Source: a virus (Duplodnaviria > Heunggongvirae > Uroviricota > Caudoviricetes). From it: DNA of 43,890 bases. Made by a program: the position numbers and the translations under genes. Shown here piece by piece: positions 839 to 40,881 of this stretch. The notes beneath the pieces were generated by a model that had not been told where the DNA came from, ran no database searches, and saw only the letters and a list, made by a program, of their open reading frames with translations. The number at the start of each line of letters is the position of its first letter. The first letter of the stretch is position 1. The stretch is taken from IMG/VR virus record IMGVR_UViG_2821013286_000001, positions 64,001 to 107,890 of that record; one strand, given 5' to 3'.

Positions 839-852
839 TATAAATATTTATA
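839..852. promoter_or_regulatory. Palindromic operator-like motif TATAAATATTTATA
   Basis: Perfect 14-bp palindrome with core TAAAYRTTTA, 44 nt before the tail tube ATG. Confidence 0.7.
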
Positions 853-896
853 CACATTTTCATTTGACAGCTGTTGTGAATAAGGAATTTTGAATT

Positions 897-1718
897 ATGG
901 CTTCGAGTACCAAGAACGTTAAGCTCGGCGCGTGCCGGGTTTATTACGATGGCCGAGACCTTGGTTTCACCAAGGGCGGTGTCGAGTTTGAAGTAACCAC
1001 CAATACCCACGATGTGACCGTCGATCAGCTTGGCGAAACTCCGATTTCGTCCCTGATTACTGGCCGTACCGCAACCGTATCCGTGCCTATGGCAGAAACC
1101 ACGCTGGAGAACCTCGTGGCCGTTATGCCTGGCTCCGTTCTCGTTTCGGACGGCTCCAAGTCCACCGGCAAGATCACCTTTGCTGGCGAAGTCGCCGATG
1201 GCGATACCGTCAAGATTGGCGATGCCGTATTCACGTTCCGCGATGTTGCCACTGGCCTTTACGAAGTGCCCGTCGCTGATGACGCTGCTGAAGTGGCTGC
1301 GTTCTTCGTTGAGACCGCTTCGGAAGCAGGCGTACCGTACAGCTTCGATGCTGTTGCTGGCGTCGTGACCGTGACCGCCAAGCTCACCGGCTCGGAATAC
1401 AACACCGCTATCGCTGTTACGGGCACCAACATCACCGCCGATCCTGTCGCTGGCGGCGTGGCCGCTACCAAGGCTCGCGTTGAAGTCAGCTCCGGCGTGA
1501 ACATCAACCTCCTGGACGTTGCTCGTCCGCTGCGCCTCGTGCCGATCGGCACCACTGGCGGCGAAGATCTGCTGATCCATCGTGCCGGTACGCCTGGCGC
1601 TATTCAGTTCGCCTATCAGTCGGACACGGAGCGCGTCTTCCAGGCATCGTTCAGTGCCTTCGCTACTGAAGATGGCCGACTGTTTGACCTCGGCGACCAG
1701 ACCGTGAAGGCGGCCTAA
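897..1718 (+). CDS. Major tail tube protein with internal inserted domain
   Basis: N-terminal 'VKLGACRVYYDGRDLGFTKGGVEFEVTT...VDQLGETP' and C-terminal 'FAYQSDTERVFQASF' are siphovirus tube-like; followed by hairpin and chaperone genes. Confidence 0.8.
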   Translation: MASSTKNVKLGACRVYYDGRDLGFTKGGVEFEVTTNTHDVTVDQLGETPISSLITGRTATVSVPMAETTLENLVAVMPGSVLVSDGSKSTGKITFAGEVADGDTVKIGDAVFTFRDVATGLYEVPVADDAAEVAAFFVETASEAGVPYSFDAVAGVVTVTAKLTGSEYNTAIAVTGTNITADPVAGGVAATKARVEVSSGVNINLLDVARPLRLVPIGTTGGEDLLIHRAGTPGAIQFAYQSDTERVFQASFSAFATEDGRLFDLGDQTVKAA

Positions 1719-1726
1719 TCCAACAA

Positions 1727-1762
1727 AAGGTCAGGGCTTACGTCCTGACCTTCCATTTTTTC
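1727..1762 (+). terminator. Hairpin/terminator after tail tube gene
   Basis: AAGGTCAGG (1727-1735) / CCTGACCTT (1744-1752) 9-bp stem followed by CCATTTTTT. Confidence 0.6.
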
Positions 1763-1792
1763 ATCCAGATATATTCATCGAAAGAATTTGCA

Positions 1793-2499: not shown

Positions 2500-2523
2500 A
2501 GCTCTCGCACGCCCTGAATTATA

Positions 2524-2537
2524 AATAAATATTTATT
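2524..2537. promoter_or_regulatory. Palindromic operator-like motif AATAAATATTTATT
   Basis: Perfect palindrome 14-17 nt before the tape measure start. Confidence 0.7.
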
Positions 2538-2551
2538 GTCTTTTAGGGCGT

Positions 2552-5500
2552 GTGATGTCTGATTTTGATATTAAACTTGTAGTCGATAACACCGAGGTCA
2601 ATCAGGGCCTCAAAGACGCCGCACGCGCAATCAACCAATTCACGAGCGTTGCGGACAAAGCGGCCAACAAGCTCGACGGCATCGCAAAGTCCGGCGAACG
2701 CGCCGAGAAGAGCCTCAAGGGCATGACATGGGCTTCGGGAGGTTTTCTCTCGAACATGCGTGATCTTTCCATCGTTCTGACGACGGCGACATATGCGCTC
2801 AATACGATGCGCGGCGCTACGCAGGGTTGGGTTACGCACATTGTGCAGGCGAATGCCGAAATGGAGCGTCTGACTTATCTCCTGTCAAGCATGTCCAAGG
2901 GGCCGAACCCTTTCAAGGAAGCAGGCGAGCAGCTTCAATATATGCGCGACCTGGCTAAACAGGTTCCGTTCTCGCTCAACGCGATTTCCAACAGCTATGT
3001 TAAGTTCAAGGCTGCCGGCCTCGATCCCGCAAACGGCTCGCTCAATTCGATGCTCGACGCTATCTCGGCGTTCGGCGGCTCGGACGAACAGCTTAATCGT
3101 ATCACCGTCGCTTTGACCCAGATGCAGGGTAAAGGCGTGATCTCGATGGAAGAATTGCGCCAACAGCTCGGCGAGCATCTGCCGACCGCAATGCAAGTTA
3201 TGGCGCGGTCCATGAACACGACCGTTGGCAACCTGACCAAACAGATTTCAACTGGCATGGTCGAGTCCAATTCAGCATTGAAGGCATTCTTCGCTGAACT
3301 GCGCATGACCTATGGCGGAACGTCCATTCAGATGATGAAGACGTTCAACGGTCAAATTTCCCAGATGAAGACCAATTTCACGCAATTGGTTACGACCGGC
3401 CAGAACAAGGCGTTTTTCGAAGACCTGAAGTCATCCATGCAGGACATGAACCGCTTCCTTCAGGGTGATGTCGCCAAGCAGTTCGCGGATCAGGTCGGAA
3501 GCGGTCTCAGTTCTGCGCTCGGCGTCGTCAAGGGTCTCGTATCCGCTACGTGGGAATGGCGCGACACGATTATCAATATCGGCGCGGCACTGGCAACGAT
3601 CGGCGCGCTGAAGATCTTCGGCGGCATTGCGAATTCTGTACGCGACATGGCCTCGACCTTTGCGACCTCTGTGCGCGGCATGAATTCCGGCGCGAAAGAG
3701 ATGGTTGCCGGCCTGACCCTTTTTGCGCAGTCGCTGGCAGAATCCAAAGACCGCATGACCGGCCTCACACTGGCAGGCGCCGGTGTGCGTCGCATGTTTA
3801 CGTCAGTGCTATCTGGGGTCCTTGCAGCTGCGCCAGTCTGGGGAGCTGTTGGTCTCGCACTCATGGAGCTTTGGGGCTATCTCGATCTGACCGGCGAGAA
3901 GTTCAAGAAGGCCAAAGACGACGCTGTTCGATATGGCGCGGAAACGCTCGAAGAACTGGCGAAGCTTCAAAAGAAGAATGACAAGGAAATTACTCGTCTC
4001 CAGCGTGAGCGAGATACCGTTATTTTCAGCATGCCTGGTCTCTCCAAGGACAAGGTGGATGAGATCTATGCCGACTATGAAAAGCGGATCGACGAGGCAC
4101 GCAAGAAGAACGAGAAGTTCGCGCAGGAGTCCACGGAAGCCACAAATGTTCGGCTTCAGAAGGAGGCAGCCAAGTCTGCCGAGGATGAATTCAGCAATCG
4201 CACGTTCCAGCGCACCAAGCAGTACGAGGCCGAAGTAACGGCGCTCAAGGCAAAGTTCGATCAGGAAGTTCAGATCGCTCAGGCTGCCGGAACGAATATT
4301 GAAAAGGTTGAAAAGGCACACTTCGCGGAAATCGATAAGGTCCGCGATAAGTTCTACGATCAGCAACTTGCTGATCTGGATCGAACGATTGCCCAAACCA
4401 AGGATAAGCTGAAGACAGCTGCACAGGGCACGGAAGCCGAGGCTCTGCTTCAGGGTCAGGTCGCTGGCCTCATTAAGCTTCAGGGTCAGATACTAGACGA
4501 GAAGCAGACGAAGCGTGAGATCAGGCTCAATTCGTCCACCTCCGACAGTAAGAATATCAGCAAGGTCCAGACGCAGATCAAAAATATCCGTCGTGAGGTT
4601 TCAGGTCTCACGCAGGATATCGACGGCACCTTTAATGGCTTCCATCAGCTGATCCAGTCGATTGAAGATGAAAAGTTCGGCAATCTGACCGCAGCTGGCG
4701 ATGAACTGAAGGAGCAGCTCGGCACGCTTGTCGCTATGACTGCTCAGTACGACGCCTTGAAGCAGGTGCGTTCCGGCTATCAGAGTGCCGTGCGCGACAT
4801 CGACTCCACTTACCGTCGCATGCGCAAGCAGATGCAGGAATGGCGTCGTGAAAGTGGCGACGAAGCTCAGCCGCTCACGAAGGCTGACGAGATCGAGCAG
4901 AATATCAGGGACGGCCAGTACAAGGGTCTTGGCATTGATGCCGAGCGTGTGAAGGCTGAACTGCGCGTAACGCTCGCCGGCCTCGAAGCCAATGCAAAGA
5001 TGGCTGATCTTGTTGGTCTCGCTTACCAGAAGAATGCATTTGGCTCCGATAGTCAGAACGCAATTCAGACCACTGGCGAGCAAATCGATCAGGTCAACCA
5101 GAAACTGACTACGATGCAGGGGCTGCTGTCAGGCGCGAGCTTTGCGAACCTGGCACTTCCTGCCGGTGTAAGCGGTCTTAGCCTGTCTGGCCTGCCTGCT
5201 TATACGAGCATGAAAGGCTCGACTGGCAATCCGTTCCTGGATCTCGTGGCCGGCAAGGAAAGCGGCGGCGATTACAACCGCTCGCTTGATAATGGCTATT
5301 GGATCGGCGGCGAAAAGAACCTGTCAGCGATGTCGCTCCGTCAGGTTCGCGAACTACAGCGCATGATGATCGCCAATCCTGCCAACCGTGCGAAATACGG
5401 TAACGGCAAGGGTTCGTCGGCCATGGGTCGCTACCAGATTGTCGGCAGTACGCTCGATGGTTTGATGCGCGAAATGGGACTGTCCGGCGATGAACTGTTC

Positions 5501-7557: not shown

Positions 7558-7560
7558 TCG

Positions 7561-7588
7561 TTGATTTATGTAAATGTTTATTTATAAT
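7561..7588 (+). promoter_or_regulatory. Sigma70-like promoter TTGATT-N16-TATAAT with operator-like motif TGTAAATGTTTATT (7569-7582) in its spacer
   Basis: Hexamers at 7561-7566 and 7583-7588 read directly; core TAAATGTTTA lies between them. Confidence 0.6.
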
Positions 7589-7615
7589 GGCTCCTATATT
7601 TGGAGCCATTATTTT

Positions 7616-8329
7616 ATGTCTAATGCGACTATTCAGAGCGAAGCGCAAAGTCTTGCGCCGAGCGGCATCATTTCATTGTTTCAGTTGGATGCGACGCGCT
7701 ACGGCGGTCCTGTTATTCGCTTTACGCAGGGTAACAAGGTCGGCGAAGTCGTCAAATTTGCCGGCAATGAGTATCAGCCGATTGATGTCGAATTCACTGG
7801 ATTGGAAACGTCAGGGCAGGGCGCTCTGCCGACGCCAACCATTCGGCTCGCCAACACTGACGGCGTTCCTCAGTCCATGGTCAACACCTATGGCGACATG
7901 ACCGGCTGTCCGCTCTACCGCATTCGCACGCATACACGCTTTCTGGATGACATGCCGGACGCAGACCCGACCGCGACCTATCCGGTCGATATTTTCCGGC
8001 TTGAGCGTAAGGCTATCGAGAACAGCCAGTTCATCGAGTGGGAGCTTTCGGCGTCTATCGATCAGGAAGGCAAGATGCTGCCTGGCCGTACGATCATCAA
8101 GGAAACCTGTCTGTGGCGCTACCGGTACTTCAACAAGTCCACCGGCAAGTTCGACTACTCCAAGGCTCAGTGCCCATTCGCCGGAAACAAGTATTTCGAC
8201 ATCAATGACCAGCCCGTCGCAAGCCCTGCGGATGACGTGCCTTCGCGCCGTCTCAACTGCTGCAAGGTTCGCTTCGGTGAGTCCGAGCCGCTTCCTTTTG
8301 GCGGCTTTCCTGGCGTTCAGCGAGTTTGA
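7616..8329 (+). CDS. Minor tail protein L (lambda gpL-like)
   Basis: ATG at 7616 with GGAG RBS; 'LFQLDATRYGG', 'GALPTPTIRL', 'RTHTRFLD', 'WELSASID', Cys-rich end 'FGGFPG'. Confidence 0.88.
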   Translation: MSNATIQSEAQSLAPSGIISLFQLDATRYGGPVIRFTQGNKVGEVVKFAGNEYQPIDVEFTGLETSGQGALPTPTIRLANTDGVPQSMVNTYGDMTGCPLYRIRTHTRFLDDMPDADPTATYPVDIFRLERKAIENSQFIEWELSASIDQEGKMLPGRTIIKETCLWRYRYFNKSTGKFDYSKAQCPFAGNKYFDINDQPVASPADDVPSRRLNCCKVRFGESEPLPFGGFPGVQRV

Positions 8330-9126
8330 TTATGACCAGTGTATTTTCCAAGAAGATTATTGAGCAGGCACGCGCACATGCACGTGAAGCCTATCCTGAA
8401 GAGAGCTGCGGACTTGTCGCTCGTGGCGTCTACGTGCGCTGCGATAACGTTGCGGCTGATCCCGCTACGCATGAGCCTGATAACAAGGACTGCGGCTGTC
8501 GGCTCTGCGCATTCATTATTGCGTCCGATTGTTTGAGTAAACATTTATACACTTTGGAAGGCGTGATTCATTCTCACCCCGATGGCCGGCCATGGCCTTC
8601 GAAGGCAGATATGATTTCGCAGATCCAGACCGATGTTCCATGGATGATTATGCCGCTCGATGCGGAGCTTGATTTGCCGCCTGTAATTTGGGGCGGCGAT
8701 ATCGAGCCTGTAATTGGTCGTGAATTCGTTCATGGCGTGACCGACTGCATGAGCCTCATTCGTGATGTCTTTCGTCTGGGCAAGGACGCTCTTGCTGAAC
8801 AGCACATTGAAGACTGGCCTTACGATCCGATCGATTTCAAGGACTGCGCACGTGAAGACGAATGGTGGCTTCACGGCGAGAGCCTCTACGAAGAAAACTG
8901 GAAGAAGTGGGGCTTTGAGAAGATTGCCGAGAGCGAAGTACGCTCCGGTGACGTGTTCATTGCCAAGATCCGCTCAAATGTTCCTAACCATGGCGGCGTC
9001 ATGGTCGGCGATGACACGATCCTTCATCACCTTCCAAACCGTCTCTCGCGCCGTGAGCCTGCGGGCATCTGGGCGCGCAATGCCTACCAGTGGTTCCGTT
9101 ATGTAGGAGACAGCTCCGATGCGTAA
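8326..9126 (+). CDS. Tail tip assembly protein K (JAB/MPN + NlpC/P60)
   Basis: 'YPEESCGLV', 'HSHPDG..PSKAD' JAB motif; 'GVTDCMSLIRD' and 'NHGGV..ILHH' NlpC/P60 motifs. Confidence 0.9.
   Translation: MIMTSVFSKKIIEQARAHAREAYPEESCGLVARGVYVRCDNVAADPATHEPDNKDCGCRLCAFIIASDCLSKHLYTLEGVIHSHPDGRPWPSKADMISQIQTDVPWMIMPLDAELDLPPVIWGGDIEPVIGREFVHGVTDCMSLIRDVFRLGKDALAEQHIEDWPYDPIDFKDCAREDEWWLHGESLYEENWKKWGFEKIAESEVRSGDVFIAKIRSNVPNHGGVMVGDDTILHHLPNRLSRREPAGIWARNAYQWFRYVGDSSDA
8536..8549. promoter_or_regulatory. Operator-like motif AGTAAACATTTATA inside gpK CDS
   Basis: Exact core TAAACATTTA followed by TACAC, as in the copy at 839. Confidence 0.5.
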
Positions 9127-15684: not shown

Positions 15685-15704
15685 GTATATAAACATTTAT
15701 ATAC
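15685..15704. promoter_or_regulatory. Operator-like motif, extended palindrome GTATATAAA-CA-TTTATATAC
   Basis: 9-bp perfect arms, just upstream of the AGGAG RBS of the first lysis-region gene. Confidence 0.7.
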
Positions 15705-15721: not shown

Positions 15722-16057
15722 ATGTCTGCGCCCACGAAAGAGGCAGGATTTTCTGTCACACAGTCCCGTATTGCTTTCGTTCTGTCGTTGGTGACAGTAA
15801 TCGGCATTCTCTATTCAGTTATCGGCGCTTACTACGATGTCCGCAACGACGCTAAAGTCGCTCGCACGGAGGCGCAAGAGGCCAAACAGCAGGCATCTGC
15901 GTTTATGGATGCCTCCAACAAGAATAACGAAAAGCTCGTTCAGCAGATTCAGTCCCTAAGCGAGACAATCAACAATCTGGCACTCACATTGCGAGAAGTT
16001 CAGACCTTGCAGCGCGCCGATCAGTCCGGCGCTCGCTTTGAGCGCAAGTTTCAGTAA
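15722..16057 (+). CDS. Single-TM coiled-coil membrane protein at head of lysis cassette (holin/antiholin candidate)
   Basis: 'IAFVLSLVTVIGILYSVIGAY' TM segment then coiled coil; AGGAG RBS; directly upstream of endolysin. Confidence 0.5.
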   Translation: MSAPTKEAGFSVTQSRIAFVLSLVTVIGILYSVIGAYYDVRNDAKVARTEAQEAKQQASAFMDASNKNNEKLVQQIQSLSETINNLALTLREVQTLQRADQSGARFERKFQ

Positions 16058-16069
16058 AGGTTTATTTAT

Positions 16070-17456: not shown

Positions 17457-17500
17457 TTGATCCGGTTACGTCCTCAGTGTATTCTGTGTAAATATTTATA
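17457..17500 (+). promoter_or_regulatory. Sigma70-like promoter TTGATC-N17-TATTCT with operator-like motif TGTAAATATTTATA (17487-17500) over the predicted start site
   Basis: Hexamers at 17457-17462 and 17480-17485; motif core exact. Confidence 0.62.
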
Positions 17501-17530
17501 CAATTTTTCAAGCACGTCCGGTTTTTCAGA

Positions 17531-21587: not shown

Positions 21588-21598
21588 AACCCGATGTG

Positions 21599-21612
21599 AA
21601 TAAACGTTTACA
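21599..21612. promoter_or_regulatory. Operator-like motif AATAAACGTTTACA
   Basis: Exact core upstream of phoH at the structural-to-replication boundary. Confidence 0.7.
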
Positions 21613-21661
21613 TACATGCATTTTGATTCTATGGTCGAAATACATCACACTTAAACTGGAT

Positions 21662-23300: not shown

Positions 23301-23326
23301 CAGATTTTCGCTTGCACTGTAATGTG

Positions 23327-23340
23327 TATAAATATTTACA
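23327..23340. promoter_or_regulatory. Operator-like motif TATAAATATTTACA
   Basis: Exact core, 14 nt before the helicase ATG. Confidence 0.7.
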
Positions 23341-23354
23341 TAGGATATTAGGCA

Positions 23355-25789: not shown

Positions 25790-25840
25790 TAAACGGTCCA
25801 ATTAAATGCCGTCAAATGACGAACTATAATCACAAATAAC

Positions 25841-25854
25841 AATAAATATTTACA
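25841..25854. promoter_or_regulatory. Operator-like motif AATAAATATTTACA, 10 nt downstream of a TATAAT
   Basis: TATAAT at 25825-25830; motif 17 nt before ATG 25872. Confidence 0.7.
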
Positions 25855-25871
25855 CAAGAATAGAGGTAGTC

Positions 25872-29395: not shown

Positions 29396-29419
29396 GCTCC
29401 CCTTTTGGGGAGCCTTTTT
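29396..29419 (+). terminator. Rho-independent terminator between convergent ligase and repC
   Basis: GCTCCCC-TTTT-GGGGAGC followed by CTTTTT. Confidence 0.75.
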
Positions 29420-30501
29420 CATTCACGCCTCCGCATCTTGCGCAGCTCAGCGCTCAAATCGAAGCGACCTTCAGCCGTCATTCGCGCCAATGTCCGGAAA
29501 TAACCGCCAAAATTCTGGATCTGTTTTGTGCCAGGTTTCGGCCGCGCCTGCATTTGCACTGTGTAGAAGAACAATTTCGCCGCAAAAACAGCACCAATCT
29601 TCTCGCGCGCCTCATCCCAGGCAGCTTCACTCAATCCACACATGCCGCGCAGCTGGACGACGCGTCCCACCAGTTCGTTCTCGGTTGTTACGGGACCAGT
29701 TACGTCAGCAGCGTCTGCACAAGTCTCCACGCATTCCCGTAAGCTCGGTTCCGCCGTCAGCTTTTCCTCAAAAGCCTGCTCACAAAAATTGAAATCGTTG
29801 TTGTTATCTATGTGGCGGCAAACCGTGCCGTCAGAGGCGGTAATTCTTTCTTCTATCTGAAGCCTTAGATCGTGCCATTCAGGCAAGATATCCACAGGGT
29901 CCGCAAAGACGCGTCTCGACGGCGTTTTGCGATTGAGTGCCGCAAGTGCATTTGTCAGGTCGCTAACGTCTGAGCCTGTTTCGAGCAGCACAACCAGTCC
30001 ATCATTGATGAATTTACGGCAGAGCGTGATCTCGTCGTAAGCCTGAGCTACGCCACGCCGAACCTCGTTGATCAGATAAGATTGGTTATGGAACTCTGTG
30101 CGCTGTTGCCACATTGGAGCTAGGTCAAACCCATAGGCACGAATGATGTTTCCGGATGGATCGAACTGCGCAAAGCGTTTGCCGTTCGGTGAGCGCACAG
30201 CAGCAATGACGTTGGCTTCGCACAATGCTGCAAGCGCAAGCCGCACCGAGCGCTCCGACAGGCCGGTAGCGTCAACGAGATATTCATTGGAAGGCCAAAC
30301 GATGGCACGTTCCTCGCACAGCTTGTTGCCGTAACAGGCAGTTAGCTCTTTGAGAACTTGACGTGCCGGTGCAGACAAAGCGAGCGCCTTGCCAGCAATC
30401 GTCGCGACTTTGAGGAGTTCAGAGCGCGTGATTGGCTCCGACAATGACTCATATTCGAAGGCAACGTCAGGCCGTCGCCAGGACCGTAAAATCCTCGCCA
30501 T
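29419..30501 (-). CDS. repC: repABC-family replication initiator RepC (no adjacent repA/repB)
   Basis: 'IVWPSNEYL', 'SERSVRLALAALCEANVI..RSPNGKRF', 'AYGFDLAPM', C-terminal 'IQNFGGYFRTL...GRFDL' match RP-C and RP-C_C motifs; likely start ATG 30501 (alternatives 30540/30549). Confidence 0.9.
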   Translation of the reverse strand: MARILRSWRRPDVAFEYESLSEPITRSELLKVATIAGKALALSAPARQVLKELTACYGNKLCEERAIVWPSNEYLVDATGLSERSVRLALAALCEANVIAAVRSPNGKRFAQFDPSGNIIRAYGFDLAPMWQQRTEFHNQSYLINEVRRGVAQAYDEITLCRKFINDGLVVLLETGSDVSDLTNALAALNRKTPSRRVFADPVDILPEWHDLRLQIEERITASDGTVCRHIDNNNDFNFCEQAFEEKLTAEPSLRECVETCADAADVTGPVTTENELVGRVVQLRGMCGLSEAAWDEAREKIGAVFAAKLFFYTVQMQARPKPGTKQIQNFGGYFRTLARMTAEGRFDLSAELRKMRRRE

Positions 30502-30512
30502 AAGGTAAGTCC

Positions 30513-30529
30513 TTGTGTCAAAGACACAA
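30513..30529 (-). promoter_or_regulatory. Stem-loop in repC leader (S-element-like)
   Basis: TTGTGTC-AAA-GACACAA perfect 7-bp stem, 11 nt upstream of ATG 30501. Confidence 0.5.
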
Positions 30530-30555
30530 AAGCTCTCCATCGCCAACAAAGCTTG

Positions 30556-30584
30556 TTGACGTGATTCGCGGACTACCCTATAAA
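30556..30584 (+). promoter_or_regulatory. ctRNA promoter TTGACG-N17-TATAAA containing a GANTC site
   Basis: Hexamers at 30556-30561 and 30579-30584; TTGAC-GTGATTCG resembles, from recall, the conserved repABC ctRNA promoter; GATTC at 30563-30567. Confidence 0.78.
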
Positions 30585-30589
30585 GGAGA

Positions 30590-30676
30590 TGCCTTTAAAC
30601 GAGAGCGAACTTGTTGTTTGGGCAGTCCATATGGATTTCAAAGACCTGGAGCGCCAACTTCAGGTCTTTTGCTTTT
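30590..30676 (+). ncRNA. Counter-transcribed antisense RNA (repABC ctRNA/RepE-like), ~85 nt
   Basis: Promoter above plus terminator; antisense to the repC leader; 5' end inferred. Confidence 0.72.
30640..30676 (+). terminator. ctRNA terminator
   Basis: 12-bp stem AAAGACCTGGAG / CTTCAGGTCTTT (one G-U), loop CGCCAA, then TGCTTTT. Confidence 0.75.
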
Positions 30677-30890
30677 ATGCCGTTTTCTTTTCAGTTTCCG
30701 TAGCGGTTAATTCCTCAATCAGTGATTTCAACGCCTCACCCCTGCCGGACAAGTTCCGAGCGCGTCTGACTTCATCCAATTTTTCTTTTGTGTCTGCATC
30801 GACCCAAAAGCTCAGCTGGACGAGATTGTTCTGTTCAGCGCGGACACGGTACTTACGCTTGTACTCACGCCAGGGAGTTGCGGTACTCAT
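30675..30890 (-). CDS. Small ribbon-helix-helix (CopG-like) protein upstream of repC
   Basis: 71 aa from ATG 30890 with GGAG RBS; 'VQLSFWVDADTKEKLDEVRRARNLSGRGEALKSLIEE' fits the beta-helix-helix pattern. Confidence 0.6.
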   Translation of the reverse strand: MSTATPWREYKRKYRVRAEQNNLVQLSFWVDADTKEKLDEVRRARNLSGRGEALKSLIEELTATETEKKTA

Positions 30891-31031: not shown

Positions 31032-31045
31032 GGTAAAGATTTACA
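31032..31045. promoter_or_regulatory. Variant operator-like motif GGTAAAGATTTACA
   Basis: One mismatch to the core, in the divergent AT-rich control region. Confidence 0.45.
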
Positions 31046-31097
31046 AGATAATTATCCGTAAGTATTTGATTTTCCGTATTTAACATTCTGTGATGAA

Positions 31098-31133
31098 AAT
31101 AAATATTGACATTATTCGCTCTCATCCTATGTT
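31098..31133 (+). promoter_or_regulatory. Putative repressor promoter TTGACA-N16-TATGTT overlapped by variant motif AATAAATATTGACA
   Basis: TTGACA 31106-31111 forms the right end of the motif; TATGTT at 31128-31133. Confidence 0.55.
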
Positions 31134-31248: not shown

Positions 31249-31665
31249 ATGGTAAGTGGGACGCAACAGGGCGTTAAGGAGTTTTCTAGGTTTTTAAGCC
31301 AGGCTCTGGATAACGTATCGAACAAATATTCGCAGCAGGAAATCGGGTACGCTCTCGGCTGGACATCGCCGAGTATCCTATCCACCTTGAAGGCTGGTCG
31401 AGCAAAAGTTCCACTCGATAAAATCGCACCGCTCTCACGCTATCTTGGCGTAGATCGTTCGCGTCTGTTTCGAATGGCTCTCGCTCAGTATTATGAAGGC
31501 GAAGCTCTGGCAAACATCGCCGAGTGCCTCAATGAGTTGCCGGATGACGAGGAAAAGCTTCTTCGCAAGTACCGGTTGCTGAAGGATAAGGCCGGCGCCT
31601 CCTCCAAGGTTGATCTTGACGAGGTGTTGAATGCTCTCGCTGAGTCCAAAGAAGCCTCTGTATAA
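31249..31665 (+). CDS. XRE/Cro-C1 HTH transcriptional regulator (candidate repressor)
   Basis: 'YSQQEIGYALGWTSPSILSTLKAGRAKVPLDKIAPLSRYLGVD'; GAGG RBS; divergent from RHH-repC; followed by hairpins. Confidence 0.82.
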   Translation: MVSGTQQGVKEFSRFLSQALDNVSNKYSQQEIGYALGWTSPSILSTLKAGRAKVPLDKIAPLSRYLGVDRSRLFRMALAQYYEGEALANIAECLNELPDDEEKLLRKYRLLKDKAGASSKVDLDEVLNALAESKEASV

Positions 31666-31670
31666 CTGAC

Positions 31671-31740
31671 ACTGGCTATTGCCTACCGAGTTCGGTAGGC
31701 ACTGCCGGTTTATACCCAACTGCTATGTTGGGTATTTTAT
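31671..31740 (+). terminator. Tandem hairpins/terminator after XRE gene
   Basis: TGCCTACCG/CGGTAGGCA stem (31680-31701) and ATACCCAAC/GTTGGGTAT (31712-31735) followed by TTTAT. Confidence 0.7.
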
Positions 31741-31754
31741 TCCTCTCTAATGTG

Positions 31755-31768
31755 AATAAATATTTACA
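31755..31768. promoter_or_regulatory. Operator-like motif AATAAATATTTACA
   Basis: Identical to the 25841 copy, including the following CAA. Confidence 0.7.
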
Positions 31769-31797
31769 CAACCCAAGAAAGTTCTGGAGTACATCCG

Positions 31798-32004: not shown

Positions 32005-32038
32005 TAGCCACGACGTTCTTTGTTTAACTTCAAATATC

Positions 32039-32052
32039 AATAAACATTCATA
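32039..32052. promoter_or_regulatory. Variant operator-like motif AATAAACATTCATA
   Basis: One mismatch; 17 nt before ATG 32070. Confidence 0.55.
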
Positions 32053-32069
32053 CAATACGAGGTAACAGA

Positions 32070-34202: not shown

Positions 34203-34235
34203 GGGTCTTCAGGCTTGCATTTATCCAGAAATGTA

Positions 34236-34249
34236 AATAAACGTTTATA
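34236..34249. promoter_or_regulatory. Operator-like motif AATAAACGTTTATA
   Basis: Exact core; TTGCAT at 34215 would put a -10 inside the motif. Confidence 0.7.
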
Positions 34250-34329
34250 TATCCAGTAGCTACCCACGTAGCACTCGATTATAAATAATCATCAACAAAA
34301 ACAATGACTTTCACAAAAACGAGGTAATA

Positions 34330-35571
34330 ATGAGCGCGGTAGCGGAACAACTTCCTACAATCAACGACAAAATCAAGTGCATGATCGACGGCGCAATGGT
34401 GCATTCCGTTGCGCGCCATATCACCGACAATTATGCGGCTGAATGGAGCATCGAGCGCTACCAGAAGGAATTTCCAGATGAGCCGCTTTTCTCGCCGTTT
34501 GCGATGAACCGCGCAAAGGCTTTGAAGGAAAAGCAGGCAGCCGAAAAGAAGCAGGAAGTCGTGCAGGAAGAGACGACCAAGGCTGTTGTGGCCGGAGCTT
34601 CGCAAAAAGGCGTGCTGATCGGCTCTAAGCTGAAGATGGATCGTCGTCCGCTGCATGAAGTCTTCGAGCTTCCGGACAGCGACGCCGTTCGCAACTCGCA
34701 TGGTCATCCAATACTGACGCCGACGTTTACCGGACATGATGACGTTCACAAGCTCTACCTTCCCGCTGTCGATACGGACTATGTGTTCAATATCGACCTG
34801 ATGAAGAAGGTCATCATGGGTTTGATCCTCAATATGCCGACCTTGCTTTGGGGATATCACGGCACAGGCAAAACGACCGTCATTTCGCAGGTAGCGGCTC
34901 GCACTGGTCGTCCAACCATGCGTGTGCAGCATACAATGAACATGCAGGAGTCGGACGTGCTCGGTCAGTACACGGTTCAGGACGGCGCAACCGTGTTCGA
35001 ACTTGGACCGTTGCCGCTCGCCATGATCAACGGTTGGGTTTATATCGCCGACGAATACGATTTCGCGATGCCTGCGGTTACTGCGCTCTATCAGCCGGTT
35101 CTCGAAGGCGAAGCGCTGATCATCAAGGACGCGCCAATTCATCTGCGCAAAATCGTGCCGCACGAGAATTTCCGTTTCTTTGCGACCGGCAACACGAACG
35201 GCATTGGCGACGAAACCGGTCTCTATCAAGGGACCAATATGCAGAACGCGGCAAATTACTCTCGCTTCCAGATCACCGAGGAAGTGAAGTACATGGACAA
35301 GAAGATCGAGCAGGCGATTGTTCGTTCGAAGTCCAAGGTTGACGAAAAGACGGCTGAAAAGCTCGTTCGTTTCGCAGGCAACATTCGTGAGGCTTTTGGC
35401 AATCAGAAGCTCTCTTCCACCATGTCGCCGCGTGAAGTGATCTCCGCTGCAAAGCTTGGTCTAGCGATCGGTGCCGACTGGCACGGCGGTTTGCGCCTGG
35501 CATTCATCAATCGTCTGAGCCGTGTTGACCAGAAGGCAGCAAATGACTTTGCACAGCGCATCTTTGCCTAG
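34330..35571 (+). CDS. cobS: CobS-like MoxR-family AAA+ ATPase
   Basis: 'LWGYHGTGKTT', 'YIADEYD', 'FRFFATGNTNG..YQGTNMQNAANYSRF', 'SPRE'. Confidence 0.85.
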   Translation: MSAVAEQLPTINDKIKCMIDGAMVHSVARHITDNYAAEWSIERYQKEFPDEPLFSPFAMNRAKALKEKQAAEKKQEVVQEETTKAVVAGASQKGVLIGSKLKMDRRPLHEVFELPDSDAVRNSHGHPILTPTFTGHDDVHKLYLPAVDTDYVFNIDLMKKVIMGLILNMPTLLWGYHGTGKTTVISQVAARTGRPTMRVQHTMNMQESDVLGQYTVQDGATVFELGPLPLAMINGWVYIADEYDFAMPAVTALYQPVLEGEALIIKDAPIHLRKIVPHENFRFFATGNTNGIGDETGLYQGTNMQNAANYSRFQITEEVKYMDKKIEQAIVRSKSKVDEKTAEKLVRFAGNIREAFGNQKLSSTMSPREVISAAKLGLAIGADWHGGLRLAFINRLSRVDQKAANDFAQRIFA

Positions 35572-36193
35572 CCGTAATCCTCTCGAAAGCGAAGCGCAGA
35601 TCAAGCGCTTCGCATGGAAGGTTCTGCGTCGGTTTCGCGGCGCAGGTCACGCCTCACTCACGCATGACGATCTCGTGCAGGAGCTTTGGGTTGCGTGGGT
35701 TAAGGCAAATCAGAGCTTCGACGGTCAGTATGGCGTGCCGTTTGCGGCGTATCTCCATCGCGTGATGCAAAATCATATCAATGACTTTGCCTCCAAGGAG
35801 ATCACACAGCGGCACAGCGAGGTAATTGCTGTTTCGCTCGACAAGCCAATGAGCGAGGACGGCGGTTCCATCGGTGAAATCATTCCTGACACTCAAGATG
35901 GTCAGGATGTCGAATTAGAACAGCGCAATAGCCTTGAGGCCGTTCTCAAGGCGCTGTCAGGTCCGGCGCAGGCATTTGTCTCGATGATGATTGATCCACC
36001 TGAAGAGGTTCAGATGGAACTGCGAATGATCGAGGCGCGCAATAGCTATGCATCTTCCCGAAAGATCGCTGGCGCGCTTCCAACGATGCTTTCCGAGCGA
36101 ATTGTTTTCGATCTGCTTTGTATCGAGAGCCGCGCGCAACGTGAAGGCATTCTCCACGAAATTGAATGTACGATAGGAGCAATCCACCAATGA
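35543..36193 (+). CDS. Phage sigma70-like factor
   Basis: Region-2-like 'HDDLVQELWVAWVKANQSFDGQYGVPFAAYLHRVMQNHI' and region-3.2-like 'VSLDKPMSEDGGSIGEIIPD'; C-terminal region 4 not clearly recognisable. Confidence 0.65.
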   Translation: MTLHSASLPSRNPLESEAQIKRFAWKVLRRFRGAGHASLTHDDLVQELWVAWVKANQSFDGQYGVPFAAYLHRVMQNHINDFASKEITQRHSEVIAVSLDKPMSEDGGSIGEIIPDTQDGQDVELEQRNSLEAVLKALSGPAQAFVSMMIDPPEEVQMELRMIEARNSYASSRKIAGALPTMLSERIVFDLLCIESRAQREGILHEIECTIGAIHQ

Positions 36194-36657
36194 CACCGAA
36201 TTTCGTTCCAGGCTGTTACGGTTCTGCGCTGGCTTATCGCTCGAAGGATCTTGTCTGCCGGCAATGTCCGCTTTCCGAGCGCTGCGGTTTGTTGAGCGAA
36301 CAGAACAAGGCAGCCTTGCGAGCGAAATATGGTGTCAAAGCCAAGCCTGTTTCCCCAACTGATCAGAAGGTTGCCAAGGTTGTCGGTGCGCTACGGAAGC
36401 TGAACCTGAATATTCGCTCGAAGCTGGTTAAATATGAAAATCCGTTCGCGACTACCCAACCTGCTCTCTTCTTCATGACGGAAATCATGATCGAGCTGCA
36501 CAAGCTCAAGAAGCCTGCAACCGAGAAGTGGCTTGCAGCTGCTGTCAGTCAGAAGATGCAGTCCGATCAAAAGGGTGCAATCCACATTCTTTGCAAGGCG
36601 TTTGAAGAGCTTGGTTTGCTCGCCAGGTCCGAAAACTCTATTTACCTGGAGATATAG
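36190..36657 (+). CDS. Hypothetical protein with Cys cluster
   Basis: 'PGCYG...CRQCPLSERC'; ATGA-coupled to the sigma-like gene. Confidence 0.6.
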   Translation: MTPNFVPGCYGSALAYRSKDLVCRQCPLSERCGLLSEQNKAALRAKYGVKAKPVSPTDQKVAKVVGALRKLNLNIRSKLVKYENPFATTQPALFFMTEIMIELHKLKKPATEKWLAAAVSQKMQSDQKGAIHILCKAFEELGLLARSENSIYLEI

Positions 36658-36670
36658 ATAAATGTTTACA
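36657..36670. promoter_or_regulatory. Operator-like motif GATAAATGTTTACA overlapping ATG 36662
   Basis: Exact core TAAATGTTTA. Confidence 0.6.
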
Positions 36671-36886
36671 TATAGCTTTTATGCCGTCGCGAAGACACCG
36701 ACCGAGAATGGGTACGTCGATAGTTCGCTAACCGCCAAGCTGAAACATACGCCACCCACCTACGCCGACCTTCAGGCATGGCAGGACTACACGAAGAAGT
36801 ACATCGAGGAACAGGGCAGCAAAGTGACTGGAACACCCATCATCACTTTCTTCGCACGAATTGCAGAAGCACAGAGGACCGATTGA
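36662..36886 (+). CDS. Small hypothetical protein
   Basis: 74 aa, GGAG RBS, fills the gap before dnaE. Confidence 0.55.
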   Translation: MFTYSFYAVAKTPTENGYVDSSLTAKLKHTPPTYADLQAWQDYTKKYIEEQGSKVTGTPIITFFARIAEAQRTD

Positions 36887-36887
36887 T

Positions 36888-39800
36888 ATGGAAACCATAC
36901 TTGCGGCACGTTCCGAATTCTCGCTTGGCGAAGCAATTCTCGATACTGGCTACATCATCGATCAGGCAAAAGCGCTGAACATGACCTGTGCGGCTTTGAC
37001 TGACACGATGACGATCTCCGGCATGGTCGATTTTACGAATAAAGCGGTCAAGGAAGAGATCAAGCCAATTATCGGTGTTCGGTTGCGTTTGACCGAGGAA
37101 CCGCTCTGGCGACCCGCTTCTGGTCAAAAGAAGAAGCATATGCCGCGCACCTACTTCCTGAGCGCTTATGCGCGCACAGAAGAAGGCATGAAGCTGCTTT
37201 ATCGTGTGCTGACGGCGGCAAACAGTGAGCCAAGGTTCTATTACGAAGCCAAATACGGCATCGACGAGTTTATCACGGACCTCACCAACTGCAACAACGG
37301 CGACTTGGCGATTGTTTACGACACCATGAACTCGCTGCTGGAGCATCCAAAGCTTGCAGACATCGCTGAACGCATCAAAGCCAGTGGCTGTGAAGCGATC
37401 TATGCGCCATTTGCAGCGGTTGCGACCCCTTACTTTGCGCGCATCACCGAAAAGGCGATGGATCTTGTTGAGAAAGGTTTCGCAGAACCGCTCGCAGTCC
37501 GCGCATCCCTCTACGCGACTGGCGAAGCAGACGCAAAAGACGCGATGCTTGGCGTTGTTGGCAATCAAAAGATCTCCAGCGGCATGTTCAAACTGCCGCA
37601 TCAGAGAAATATGCACGTCATGTCGGAAGCGGAGTTCGCGCGCGAGCTGCTGGAAACAGCAAAGCTTTTGAAGGCGTCCGGTCGCGCAACGCTGACCGCA
37701 CACATGAAGACGGCTATCGCCAATACGGACGTATTTCCGACACTGATCACCTATCAGTGGGAGCAGAAGGCCCCTTCCCTTCCAAAGCTGGCGCCAAACG
37801 AGTTCGCGGCGGTCGCAGCCGAATGCAAGAAAGGCTGGACCGAGCGCTTCTCAACGGACGTTTTTGGTCACAAGCCTGGTCCGGATGAATTGCGCGATGT
37901 CTATATGCCGCGCCTGAAGTATGAGCTGGATACGCTCAAGCGTCTGGACTTTTGCGGCTACTTCTTGCTCGTGCAGAATATCGTTCAACACGCAAAGTCC
38001 AGCGGCATCATGGTTGGCCCAGGTCGCGGTTCTGTTGGCGGCAGCCTGGTTGCTTATCTGATGGGCATCACCGATTGCGATCCTATTCGCTTCGGACTGA
38101 TGTTTGAGCGCTTCATCAATCCTGAGCGTATCGATCTTCCCGACGCCGATCTTGATTTCATGGCAACGCGGCGTCACGAGATTTTCGAATATCTCTATAA
38201 GCGATTTGGCGACGATTATGTTGCTGGCGTGTCGAACTATGGCGCGCTTCTCAGTCCGTCTGCGATCCGATCCGTTGCGAAGCTGTTCCAGCTGCCAGAA
38301 CGTGAGTTCGAAGTCTCGAAAATGGTGCCCAAGAAGCACGGCCAGCCAGTGTCGCTTGAGGAAGCTACCGAGGAAGTCCCGGAAATCAAAACCTACGCCG
38401 ATGCAAATCCCGTCGTCTGGGGCTTTACCAAGACTTTGGAAGGCAAGATGCGCAGTTATGGTCAGCACGCCGCAGGCATGATCGTCGCTGGCGAACCGTT
38501 GATCAATCGCGCCGTGCTCGAAAAGCGCACGAACGGCCAGGTTGTGAATTGGGACAAGCGTATCGTTGAAAGCCAAGGTCTGGTGAAGATGGATATTCTT
38601 GGTCTCTCCACGCTCGATCTGATTTCGCTCACGCTCAACTATATCCGCGAAAATTACCCGTCAGTGCCTGATATTTATTCAATTCCGCTAGATGACGAGA
38701 AGGTTTTGGCGAATTTCGCAGAAGGCAACACGGTTGGCGTGTTCCAGTTCGAAAGTCCTGGCATGCGAAATCTGCTGCGCAATTGCGCCAAGGGCGGCAC
38801 GATCACCTTTGAAGATATCACAGCCGCGACCGCCCTTTATCGTCCTGGTCCGATGGACTCCGGCATGATGGACAACTTTGTAAAGCGTAAGCAAGGAGCG
38901 GAAAGCGTTTCATACGATCATCCTCTTATGGAGCCAATCCTGAATGAGACGCTTGGCGTTATCATCTATCAGGAACAGGTTATGCGCATTTCACAGGTGA
39001 TCTGCGGCTATTCCGGTGCTGACGCCGACAAGCTTCGCAAGATCATGGGTAAGAAAGAACCTGCTGAAATGGCCAAGCAGAAGGAAAAATTCGTTCAAGG
39101 TGCGATTGATACGGTTGGCGCTGCTGAAAAGTGGGCTGACCAGCTATTCGATAATATTGCGAAGTTCGCCGGTTACGGCTTCAACAAAAGCCACTCGATC
39201 GAATATACGCTGATCTCCTATCAGTCGATGTACCTGAAGACATACTATCCGACCGAGTTCTATGCAGCGGCGCTGTCAATTCTCGATGAAGACAAGCTTA
39301 TTGGCATCGTGCGTGACGCTTCGCGTGCCGGGATCGATGTCGTCGTGCCGGATATCAATGAATCCACAAACCGCTTCGAGATCCTGAATGCGCGTAAGCT
39401 CCTTATGCCATTCAATCGCATCAAGGGTATTTCTGAAAAGACAGGCGACGCAATTCTGACGGCGAGAGCTGCTGGCAAATTCACGTCGATCACAGACTTC
39501 CTCGATCGTGTTGAGAAAAGGCGCTGTAACGCAAAGCATCAGGATCTATTGAACAAGGTCGGCGCTTATTGCTCCATCGATCCCGCTTCTATTCCTGTCA
39601 ATGATCCGAGCCGCATTCTCGATCAATATGAACTGCTGCCGGGATTGGTAACAAAGGCTGTGCCTATCAACCGGTCCTTCAGCAATGACAAGGCGACGCG
39701 CGAGATCGTTACGGACGTAGTGAATAACTATCACGCTGCGCATGGCGCGACTTCTGCCAACCCAGACGGCCTGCCAGTCAAGCCGATCTTTGGCAAACAT

Positions 39801-40250
39801 GCAGCTTTCATGATCGTCACTGATGCACCGCATTCGGAGGATGAAAAGGCAGGTCAGCTTGGCAATGCCAAAAGCTCGTCCGCCCTTTGGGATGCTCTCG
39901 ACATTAATGGGTTGAAGAAGAACGACATCTATTGGACTTCCGTCGTGAAGCGTCCAAAGACTGGCAAGTTCCTCAACCCCGAAGAAGTTGCGCTCTATTC
40001 GCCGTATCTCGATCAGGAAATCGAATATACCGGCACTCCTGTTGTTGTCGCTTGCGGATCTGCCGCAATCCGTCACTTCGATCCGGAATTCAAAGGTCGC
40101 GCATCCGAGCGAGCCGGTGAAATTTTCTATGACAAGAAACGCGACTTGAACGTCGTGATTGGCTTCAATCCAGGTGAGATTTATTTCGATCCTGACAAAC
40201 TCGATCTACTGGTGAATACAATCACCGTGGCACTGGATCTCGTCGGTTAG
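36888..40250 (+). CDS. dnaE: DNA polymerase III alpha subunit (C-family) with C-terminal UDG-like domain
   Basis: 'GPGRGSVGGSLVAYLMGITD', 'FERFINPERIDLPDADLDF', 'KMDILGL', 'VFQFES', 'FAGYGFNKSHS'; start ATG 36888 after GAGG. Confidence 0.96.
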   Translation: METILAARSEFSLGEAILDTGYIIDQAKALNMTCAALTDTMTISGMVDFTNKAVKEEIKPIIGVRLRLTEEPLWRPASGQKKKHMPRTYFLSAYARTEEGMKLLYRVLTAANSEPRFYYEAKYGIDEFITDLTNCNNGDLAIVYDTMNSLLEHPKLADIAERIKASGCEAIYAPFAAVATPYFARITEKAMDLVEKGFAEPLAVRASLYATGEADAKDAMLGVVGNQKISSGMFKLPHQRNMHVMSEAEFARELLETAKLLKASGRATLTAHMKTAIANTDVFPTLITYQWEQKAPSLPKLAPNEFAAVAAECKKGWTERFSTDVFGHKPGPDELRDVYMPRLKYELDTLKRLDFCGYFLLVQNIVQHAKSSGIMVGPGRGSVGGSLVAYLMGITDCDPIRFGLMFERFINPERIDLPDADLDFMATRRHEIFEYLYKRFGDDYVAGVSNYGALLSPSAIRSVAKLFQLPEREFEVSKMVPKKHGQPVSLEEATEEVPEIKTYADANPVVWGFTKTLEGKMRSYGQHAAGMIVAGEPLINRAVLEKRTNGQVVNWDKRIVESQGLVKMDILGLSTLDLISLTLNYIRENYPSVPDIYSIPLDDEKVLANFAEGNTVGVFQFESPGMRNLLRNCAKGGTITFEDITAATALYRPGPMDSGMMDNFVKRKQGAESVSYDHPLMEPILNETLGVIIYQEQVMRISQVICGYSGADADKLRKIMGKKEPAEMAKQKEKFVQGAIDTVGAAEKWADQLFDNIAKFAGYGFNKSHSIEYTLISYQSMYLKTYYPTEFYAAALSILDEDKLIGIVRDASRAGIDVVVPDINESTNRFEILNARKLLMPFNRIKGISEKTGDAILTARAAGKFTSITDFLDRVEKRRCNAKHQDLLNKVGAYCSIDPASIPVNDPSRILDQYELLPGLVTKAVPINRSFSNDKATREIVTDVVNNYHAAHGATSANPDGLPVKPIFGKHAAFMIVTDAPHSEDEKAGQLGNAKSSSALWDALDINGLKKNDIYWTSVVKRPKTGKFLNPEEVALYSPYLDQEIEYTGTPVVVACGSAAIRHFDPEFKGRASERAGEIFYDKKRDLNVVIGFNPGEIYFDPDKLDLLVNTITVALDLVG

Positions 40251-40316
40251 AAACTATTCTAACCCTCTGACCGACGCGATATTTTAATCAAGAGCTACTT
40301 TTCAAAGGTTTAAATA

Positions 40317-40835
40317 ATGTCCAACACTACTTCAACTCTTAATATCACAGTTTTGGACTTCATCGACGCAAAACAATTAAAGGAGGATCTAGCCTTTTCA
40401 ACGAATGATCTTACGTCTGCCATGATGGCGCAGTCGAGCATGTTCGCACATTATGGCGAACTCGCAGCGGATGCTTCTTATCAGGTAGACAAGCTCGAAA
40501 TGGCACTGAAGACAACGGAGTCAGCTGTCTACAAGGCTATTCGGGATGATTACGTCAAAAAGGGCGATAAGGTAACAGAAGGACAACTCACCAATCTCGT
40601 CGCCTCTCATGATCACGTTAAGGCGATCAAGCTGGCACTGAACAAAGCGGTTCGCGTGGAAAACATCTGCAAGAATGCAGTGGAAGCCTTCCGGCAACGG
40701 CGCGACATGCTCATCCAGTGTGGCTCGACCATGCGTGAAGAAATGAAGGGCGAGGTCTACATTCGCGGTAGGCAGAACGCGGAAGAGAGCGTTCAAAATC
40801 TGGAGAAAACCCTATTGAGCAATATGAATCGATAG
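40317..40835 (+). CDS. UvsY-like recombination mediator (tentative)
   Basis: All-helical 172 aa; 'NAVEAFRQRRDMLIQ' resembles the UvsY C-terminal helix; lies upstream of gp32-like SSB and RecA. Confidence 0.5.
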   Translation: MSNTTSTLNITVLDFIDAKQLKEDLAFSTNDLTSAMMAQSSMFAHYGELAADASYQVDKLEMALKTTESAVYKAIRDDYVKKGDKVTEGQLTNLVASHDHVKAIKLALNKAVRVENICKNAVEAFRQRRDMLIQCGSTMREEMKGEVYIRGRQNAEESVQNLEKTLLSNMNR

Positions 40836-40867
40836 GCGAAATCCACTTGCTTTTAACCCCGAATATC

Positions 40868-40881
40868 AATAAACATTTATA
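40868..40881. promoter_or_regulatory. Operator-like motif AATAAACATTTATA
   Basis: Exact core; TTGCTT at 40847 has the same 21-nt offset as at 34215. Confidence 0.7.

Follow-up and report, generated by a model that had tools for sequence, protein, structure and literature searches.

In phage P1, the operators of the C1 repressor, which is not an XRE-type protein, are asymmetric 17-bp sequences scattered over the plasmid prophage, and the late operons are controlled indirectly through an activator. The stoperators of mycobacteriophage L5 are 13 bp long, also asymmetric, and bound by a monomer of the repressor gp71 that blocks elongation. In Cluster A phages, repressor and stoperator sites reportedly co-evolve. 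Here we describe a palindromic element repeated across the genome of a phage-plasmid, in a stretch of 43,890 nucleotides that we call the window (bases 64001-107890 of the 107,890-bp IMG/VR record IMGVR_UViG_2821013286_000001; positions are those of the window unless given for the genome). We propose that its copies, here called dyads, are probably the dispersed operators of a single dimeric repressor encoded by the phage, the strongest candidate being the XRE-like protein encoded at 31249-31665.

The likeness to P1 C1 lies in a single plasmid-prophage repressor with many operators over a genome of ~100 kb, placed before unrelated operons and without one lambda-type switch. Unlike those of P1, the sites of this genome are dyads, number ~39, and also stand directly before structural and lysis genes. 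With L5 and the Cluster A phages the network shares 20-30 or more sites in short intergenic gaps, at early and late operons and oriented with transcription, as well as lineage-specific site variants, which define immunity groups there. It differs from the gp71 sites in consisting of 18-bp dyads held at a fixed register within promoter-like units. As far as the sequence can tell, the system works like P1 C1 and the L5 stoperators but is a member of neither family: in place of an asymmetric operator and a monomeric repressor, we find dyads and an XRE-type candidate.

The core of the element, TAAAYRTTTA, has 13 exact matches in the window, at precisely the positions given for exact cores in an earlier note made from the sequence alone, against a mean of 0.02 and a maximum of 1 in dinucleotide-preserving shuffles (Table 1). 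The whole 107,890-bp genome contains 27 exact cores and no copy of the reversed control pattern. About 12 further near-consensus sites, scoring 18-27 bits in a 22-column matrix for which shuffles give 0-1 hits at ≥12 bits, bring the total to about 39. When up to one mismatch is allowed in the 14-mer, the same 13 sites of the window are recovered together with 31098 and 32039. A further one-mismatch copy claimed at 31032 could not be confirmed, as it departs from the 14-mer at two positions and stays under 12 bits in the matrix, and a near-consensus copy before the endolysin gene (16053-16066) had been overlooked. The G+C content of the window, put at about 55% in the earlier note, is 52.7%.

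As expected of dispersed operators, the many copies are scattered before and within lytic operons and are oriented with transcription. While the coding fraction of the genome is 0.88, 21 of the 27 exact cores lie entirely outside the longest open reading frame (ORF) calls; another five overlap merely doubtful 5' ends of such calls, and a single one (8536) is truly intragenic. The gene in question, the minor tail gene at 8326-9126, has a phrog_30 match spanning residues 7-261, and its orthologue in the related genome G001 aligns over 261 aa. Dyads are present in 22 of the 62 intergenic gaps of at least 40 bp in the genome. The reported spread before tail, lysis, fibre, replication and recombination units of a plasmid-type prophage is borne out, and the distance of 14-55 nt to a start codon, claimed for most copies, applies to eight of the 13 exact sites and not to the other five. 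Outside the window, genome positions 27000-48000 hold small, poorly conserved genes with just one exact dyad and five near-consensus dyads (30924, 31002, 37697, 47197 and 47482), two of which are 78 bp apart.

We aligned the 27 exact sites on the dyad centre and derived an information profile. The element is an 18-bp dyad, TRWATAA-AYRT-TTATWYA, made of two 7-bp half-sites that are 11 bp apart and separated by a 4-bp gap (7-N4-7). The mirrored positions are -9/+9, -8/+8, -6/+6 and -5..-2/+2..+5. Symmetry reaches T-9/A+9 and continues more weakly to ±13, so that the element measures 18-26 bp and not the 14 bp originally claimed. At the dyad centre there is always a pyrimidine-purine step, and all four combinations occur. 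Twofold symmetry with half-sites about one helical turn apart, as found in the 27 sites and in relatives, is a hallmark of operators and, judged from the letters, matches what a protein dimer would recognise in duplex DNA. Those mirror positions that vary (±1, ±6, ±7 and ±8) do so independently, with as many Watson-Crick pairs observed as expected, so there is no selection for a hairpin. We therefore rejected an RNA or DNA hairpin function of the dyad, the arms of which do not covary; right-arm variants in G001 also break pairing.

The element has a direction as well as a symmetry. Upstream of the dyad, a TTRnCC box occupies positions -22..-17, with T-21 in 22 of the 27 sites. T-11 is found in 24 of them, and A+7 in 22 against only nine for its mirror T-7. 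In a leave-one-out test, 23 of the 27 sites score better in the + orientation, and the dyad upstream of the minus-strand parA gene is among the four that flip. The fixed distance of the box and the common direction refute the variable register relative to promoter hexamers from which the earlier note had argued for a dimeric regulator; that argument falls, and recognition of the dyad by a dimeric phage regulator finds support in the symmetry itself. A scan for sigma70-like promoters returned sites no more often than in shuffles, which makes the sigma70-like hexamers previously reported chance matches.

From the TTRnCC box it is 17 bp to TTTAYA and 19 bp to TAYAYA in the right arm of the dyad; in alphaproteobacteria, -10 hexamers usually end in a base other than T (PMC8407463). 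The closest start codons lie at +17, +22, +22 and +25 from the dyad centre. Transcription, whose start sites we infer from these distances, must therefore begin inside or just past the dyad, and no room is left for the geometry of an upstream activator. Since one dyad lies inside the minor tail gene (8534-8551), not every site can be the promoter for a downstream gene start.

Strong hairpins follow the dyad at nine sites, and eight of the nine begin at +12 to +16. Those with z ≤ -2.3 include 7581-7603, 34247-34270 and 40884-40903 in the window and 61933-61955, 20964-20979 and 26676-26700 in the genome. Several of the hairpins are followed by T-runs and some look like terminators; their role could be that of 5' stem-loops on transcripts, or of terminators that come into play only when transcription reads through. 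The order of a dyad and then a terminator-like hairpin after the major capsid gene is kept in G001 (88091).

The record has a 95-bp end overlap, which indicates a circular assembly, and domain, PHROG and annotation scans identify a siphovirus-like phage-plasmid of RepC/ParA/ParG type. According to tblastn of all its genes against G001 and V1VFA-S, together with annotation and domains, the genome belongs to the RHEph10/pLM21S1/V1VFA-S group of RepC-type plasmid-like prophages. It shares with them the gene order and the RepC, ParA, CobST, sigma and DnaE modules: tail, lysis, helicase-primase, ligase, RepC, CobT-CobS-sigma-DnaE and ParA blocks are syntenic across siphovirus-type genomes of 105-125 kb. 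Several relatives exist as plasmids, including pRlX6 (PMC12509600) and pLM21S1 (PMC4447125) in their isolates, and plasmids of Methylobacterium and Pararhizobium. A megablast search of phage records with 7 kb of the window gave no match, and the relatives were found through protein searches only.

We compared 48 IMG/VR contigs, found through CobS, over 21 kb surrounding cobS. Closest among the complete relatives is G001 (112 kb; sigma factor 51-53% identical), in which the core TAAAYRTTTA is absent; TAACTAA occurs 37 times there, and about 12 of these copies form perfect TAACTAA-N4-TTAGTTA dyads, with the same kind of placement. Rhizobium phage V1VFA-S has TAAGTAA-N4-TTACTTA, which forms 16 clusters within 50 kb of its genome and about as many in the other half. 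RHEph10 has TCAGTMA-ATAT-TKAYTGA dyads, and half-sites TAAGTCA or TCAGTCA occur in other relatives. The generic pattern T.A.T.A-N4-T.A.T.A, with a chance estimate of well below one copy per locus, is present in nearly all 48 relatives, and G001, V1VFA-S, RHEph10 and the majority of the 48 conform to the 7-N4-7 layout. Across at least four lineages, the sequence has changed and the symmetry has been preserved. Dyads with the lineage's own sequence also stand at orthologous positions, before the helicase gene (23325..23342 in the window, with lineage-specific dyads in V1VFA-S and G001), after the XRE-like gene, before cobT and before nrdB.

In G001, conservation of the left half-site, TAACTAA, far exceeds that of the right (37 left copies for ~12 perfect dyads), and tandem extra half-sites (TTAGTTAGTTA) are also present; both hint at asymmetric or higher-order binding in that genome. 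V1VFA-S and RHEph10 carry a separate two-block motif, tCCC-N11-GCTATAA, located 2, 9-10 or 30 nt upstream of some dyads. As tCCC-N11/12-GCTATAA (GCTATT in RHEph10) it has 14 copies in 50 kb of V1VFA-S, some of them without a dyad, which shows that promoter-like and dyad elements are separable in these two phages. The motif may represent the promoter class of the phage sigma or of the host sigma70, and no counterpart was found in the window's genome. Examples are at 25688, 36617, 40755 and 47219 of V1VFA-S 60001-110000 (L016) and at 30540 and 45260 of RHEph10 (L018).

A single homologue of the XRE-like protein is found at the same position in 39 relatives, and the module formed by RepC (-), a ribbon-helix-helix (RHH) protein (-) and the XRE-like protein (+) lies ~3 kb upstream of cobS in every relative. 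The homologues align over their full length, and their recognition helix differs between dyad classes: NMITMLK goes with TTACTTA, N[IV]ISMFK with TGACTTG and SNMVTMIK with the ATAT-centred dyads, and the window genome has SPSILSTLK. The AlphaFold2 model of the protein has a pLDDT of 83.6, with residues 10-90 at ≥90, and is predicted to contain the five-helix helix-turn-helix (HTH) domain of XRE/Cro-cI proteins. Its Foldseek neighbours are nearly all XRE-type (C.BclI, C.AhdI, ClgR, HigA, P22 c2 and lambda cI). The match covers the N-terminal ~80 residues, with a TM score on the target of 0.72-0.75 for C.BclI and C.AhdI, which are controller proteins of restriction-modification systems, and a profile search of the PDB returned weak hits to 3bs3 and C.BclI. 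C.BclI, C.AhdI, P22 c2, lambda cI and ClgR, with which this predicted N-terminal fold is shared, sit as dimers on palindromes, and the half-site spacing of about one helical turn seen here fits such binding. In contrast to the dispersed sites described here, theirs are one or a few clustered operators, and the C-terminal helical part of the XRE-like protein (residues ~84-137) is unmatched and lacks the S24 self-cleavage domain.

The best sigma70-like promoter before the XRE-like gene is TTGACA-N16-TATGTT (31106-31133), and a weak dyad (31096-31113) covers its -35 hexamer. Analogous weak dyads precede the XRE-like gene in V1VFA-S and G001, making three lineages with the window genome. This arrangement suggests autoregulation.

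A distant relative bears on the choice between the XRE-like protein and the sigma factor. E. coli pLF82 (NC_011917.1) is a syntenic SSU5-like phage-plasmid with a full-length XRE homologue (hmmsearch 1e-20; HTH region 35% identical), whose gene occupies the equivalent place next to the cobT-cobS-dnaE block. It also has dispersed dyads of the same design: 12 copies of TAAGTA-N6-TACTTA over 108 kb against one for the control, for example at 23449, 26971, 30405, 39253 and 64973. Five of them fall within a 39-kb locus, each in a short gap between genes, and three of these are followed by a start codon at 14-45 nt. By contrast, RHH-RepC is replaced in pLF82 by an IncFIB RepA replicon and an integrase, its regulator gene is divergent, its sites are fewer, and it has no sigma gene: neither Sigma70_r2 nor the sigma factor of the window found a match at E values up to 1, in searches to which control genomes respond. 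Dyads of this type are thus not confined to genomes with a phage sigma gene. A different palindrome, AAACAAnTTGTTTtcTTA, has three copies in the first 39 kb of pLF82.

The pLF82 homologue is CYRAN_45, annotated as the putative repressor of Cyrano/pLF82 in E. coli LF82 (PMC9928086). In lysogenic cultures, CYRAN_45 was transcribed ~10-fold above the prophage background, while the neighbouring cobT and cobS stayed at background (PMC9928086). We found no description of an operator for CYRAN_45/pLF82 in the literature searched. The symmetry of the dyads, their presence in pLF82 without a sigma gene and the expression of this homologue in lysogens uphold the choice of the XRE gene at 31249 as the best candidate binder, already made in the earlier note.

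The neighbouring RHH-RepC pair tells a different story. Among relatives that keep the XRE-like protein, sigma and dyad class, the pair has been exchanged as a unit. Compared with RHEph10, L059 and L047 have 74-75% identity in the XRE-like protein and 82% in sigma against 25% in the RHH protein and 40% in RepC; for L029 against V1VFA-S, the figures are 69, 70, 18 and 42%. Where the RHH protein is at 18-25% and RepC at 40-42% identity (29419-30890 in the window; L029, L047 and L059), CobS is at 78-84%. These values point to replacement of the replicon and its CopG-like regulator as a module. Because RHH-RepC is exchanged while the dyad class stays, we rejected the RHH protein as the dyad binder; the exchange fits a local CopG-like role for it. 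The RHH/XRE intergenic region of G001 (L010 12180-12215) contains a further AT-rich inverted repeat, AAATAATT..AATTATTT, which differs from the dyad and is possibly the RHH operator.

We infer from these comparisons that the XRE-like protein binds the dyads, that it does so as a dimer and that binding represses. In the mechanism we propose, a dimer would bind each dyad. The TTRnCC box at its fixed distance and a TA-containing, -10-like hexamer supplied by the right arm would together make up a directional promoter-like unit, and with the dyad lying over the core promoter or start site, the bound dimer would keep transcription from initiating; where sites lie inside the tail operon, it might act as an elongation roadblock. 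Structural, lysis, replication, recombination and sigma-factor genes would in this way be silenced together during RepC/ParA plasmid lysogeny, and the weak dyad over its own -35 hexamer would let the repressor control its own gene.

A broader picture may also hold, although we would put it slightly below an even chance. In this picture, a supergroup extending from Rhizobiales RepC-type to Enterobacteriaceae SSU5-like phage-plasmids would have one conserved XRE-like repressor and dozens of 7-N4-7 dyads on nearly all operon promoters, with 1-3 half-site changes and matching changes of the recognition helix defining immunity groups. In the window genome, a fixed register would tie operator and promoter together in one portable cassette, and the two would spread and evolve as one.

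Several observations weigh against repression by the XRE-like protein. Its Pfam HTH_31 match is weak and below the gathering score, and Foldseek against the PDB gave no match at E ≤0.001 (best ~3e-3), so the fold assignment rests on consistent weaker matches. A simple recognition code was rejected, as pLF82 and V1VFA-S share the TAAGTA half-site while their recognition helices differ. The XRE-like protein and sigma diverge in step across the 39 relatives; since their identities move together with no discordant pair, covariation cannot separate the two in the alphaproteobacterial relatives, and the case against sigma, as built from sequence comparison, depends on the distant pLF82. The direction of the unit, its fixed box and the ~8 hairpins at +12 to +16 would equally be expected of a pure promoter element. 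Direct repression of every late operon, even between tail genes, is unusual. Finally, a dyad stands upstream of parA (genome 50281), a gene that must be expressed in a plasmid lysogen.

Several of these points are shared with a reading in which there is no repressor and the unit is a promoter for host RNA polymerase carrying the phage sigma factor (35522-36193), with the conserved block as -10 or extended -10 and TTRnCC as -35. Such a promoter would account for the orientation of 23 of the 27 sites, for a box at constant distance and for sites before nearly all middle- and late-type operons; the hairpins would fit 5' stem-loops of transcripts starting just past the dyad, and sigma identity follows dyad class as closely as that of the XRE-like protein. 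However, sigma factors read asymmetric elements, and a twofold symmetry of at least 18 bp has been kept in at least four lineages. The dyads of pLF82 exist without a sigma gene, the promoter-like two-block motif is separable from the dyad in V1VFA-S and RHEph10, and the sigma gene itself lies behind a dyad. The sigma factor, named as an alternative in the earlier note, is therefore less likely than the XRE-like repressor on grounds of symmetry, separable motif and pLF82, and we regard it as an unlikely explanation. Promoters for a phage-encoded RNA polymerase were rejected, as no gene for a phage-type RNA polymerase was found among the large ORFs of the genome. The foremost of the rivals, still improbable in our view, is that the dyads serve as operators or roadblocks for another dimeric phage protein, maybe timing lytic growth; candidates include the 163-aa protein whose gene follows that of sigma, either of the two ParB-N proteins, and any small protein so far lacking annotation. 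Many small genes are indeed unannotated, the comparison of relatives covers only the 21 kb around cobS, and dyads between and inside tail genes resemble elongation roadblocks more than promoter operators. On the other hand, the sole sequence-specific HTH regulator of dimer type that can be recognised in the conserved control region is the product of the XRE-like gene; weak dyads lie at the promoter of this gene, its homologue is expressed in the lysogen of a related element, and pLF82 is not known to share any other candidate.

Two further readings look outside the lytic programme. Phage N15 has dispersed palindromic centromeres, and in a RepC/ParA/ParG-type phage-plasmid in which two dyads flank the parA-parG operon, the sites might similarly serve plasmid maintenance through ParG-like, ParB-like, RHH or RepC proteins. 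Maintenance sites would not readily explain ~39 copies, nearly all just before genes and oriented with them. Nor do the dyads follow the partition or replication module, judged on RHH-RepC, which is swapped with the dyad class unchanged, and on the IncFIB RepA replicon of pLF82, which comes with the same dyad type; we consider this reading very improbable. Least probable of all is a host DNA-binding protein, such as a global regulator or nucleoid protein, that the phage has come to use. AT-rich sites with a flexible YR centre are common where host proteins bend DNA, but phages of one host genus, V1VFA-S and RHEph10, have different dyads. Host background was taken from 201 genomes of the order of one Rhizobiales-type metagenome-assembled genome (MAG) matched by the XRE-like protein, an order that may not be the host's; a scan of genome contigs with this single protein had returned four distant MAG hits only. 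The core occurs mostly 0-7 times in each of these genomes, mostly more rarely than the reversed control, against 27 in 108 kb here. The earlier note had raised the prospect that the motif might be equally common in host DNA, and in these genomes it is not.

Table 1. Dyads and regulatory or replication genes of the window. Leave-one-out values are orientation scores; offsets are counted from the dyad centre.
Feature	Position	Strand	Evidence and remarks
Dyad before Ig-domain/major-tail-like gene (897-1718)	837..854	+	Exact core; box TTATCT at -22..-17; leave-one-out orientation +6.2
Dyad before tape-measure gene (2552-7207)	2522..2539	+	Exact core; start codon at +22
Dyad before minor tail gene	7567..7584	.	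Exact core; orientation favours reverse strand (-7.0); strong hairpin from +12
Intragenic dyad in minor tail gene 8326-9126, ~codons 70-74	8534..8551	.	Exact core
Dyad before 111-aa gene (15722), first of lysis block	15686..15703	+	Exact core
Near-consensus dyad directly before endolysin gene (16070-16594)	16051..16068	.	18.8 (+) and 21.7 (-) bits
Dyad before 116-aa gene and 1079-aa tail fibre gene (17886-21125)	17485..17502	+	Exact core
Dyad before PhoH-like gene	21597..21614	+	Exact core
Dyad before DnaB-type helicase gene (23355)	23325..23342	+	Exact core; start codon at +22
Dyad before 220-aa gene (25872)	25839..25856	+	Exact core; start codon at +25
RepC replication initiator	29419..30549	-	RP-C and RP-C_C domains; plasmid-prophage context
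RHH (CopG-like) gene, first of repC operon	30675..30890	-	RHH_1 match; family alignment
Weak dyad overlapping TTGACA before XRE-like gene	31096..31113	+	One mismatch; 17.7 bits
XRE/Cro-cI-type HTH protein, 138 aa, proposed repressor	31249..31665	+	phrog_8/phrog_2967 transcriptional regulator
Dyad past terminator of XRE-like gene, before 68-aa gene (31798)	31753..31770	+	Exact core
Near-consensus dyad before CobT-like gene (32070)	32037..32054	+	22.7 bits; orthologous dyad in V1VFA-S
Dyad before cobS-sigma operon	34234..34251	+	Exact core; orthologous operator recognisable in at least 30 relatives
Phage sigma-70-family factor	35522..36193	+	Sigma70_r2 E 1.4e-10; phrog_351; dyad upstream
Dyad before small ORF and DnaE-type polymerase gene	36655..36672	+	Exact core
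Dyad before gp32-like single-stranded DNA-binding protein gene (41048)	40866..40883	+	Exact core; hairpin from +16

The RHEph10/pLM21S1 and SSU5 types of phage-plasmid are frequently met in soil rhizobia and clinical Enterobacteriaceae, and silencing in their plasmid state is essentially undescribed. No description of the dyad network was found in the literature searched; neither PMC12509600 nor a term search of PMC4447125 revealed it, and both papers describe gene content only. The present analysis contributes the fixed register, the exclusion of the RHH protein, the test offered by the sigma-less pLF82 and the link to lysogenic expression. If repression by the XRE-like protein is correct, a single repressor with palindromic operators across the genome would provide a testable model of lysogeny for both types, and a third, dyad/XRE-type solution, beside those of P1 and L5, for silencing a whole genome by dispersed operators. 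The dyads would then serve as a sequence marker for immunity groups, allowing superinfection exclusion between phage-plasmids to be predicted, and as compact, co-regulated promoter-operator cassettes for alphaproteobacteria.

Among the genes of the window are tail, tape-measure, J-like, endolysin and tail-fibre genes on the one hand and, on the other, genes for DnaB helicase, primase, ligase, RepC, CobT/CobS, the sigma-70-family factor, DnaE, a gp32-like protein, an exonuclease and RecA. The remainder of the genome encodes a ParA/ParG-like pair, a helicase, ParB-N proteins, ribonucleotide reductase, ThyX and RtcB. The DnaE-type polymerase (36861-40250) carries a C-terminal domain of the uracil-DNA-glycosylase superfamily at residues 979-1089, a fusion that is also present in the annotation of RHEph10.

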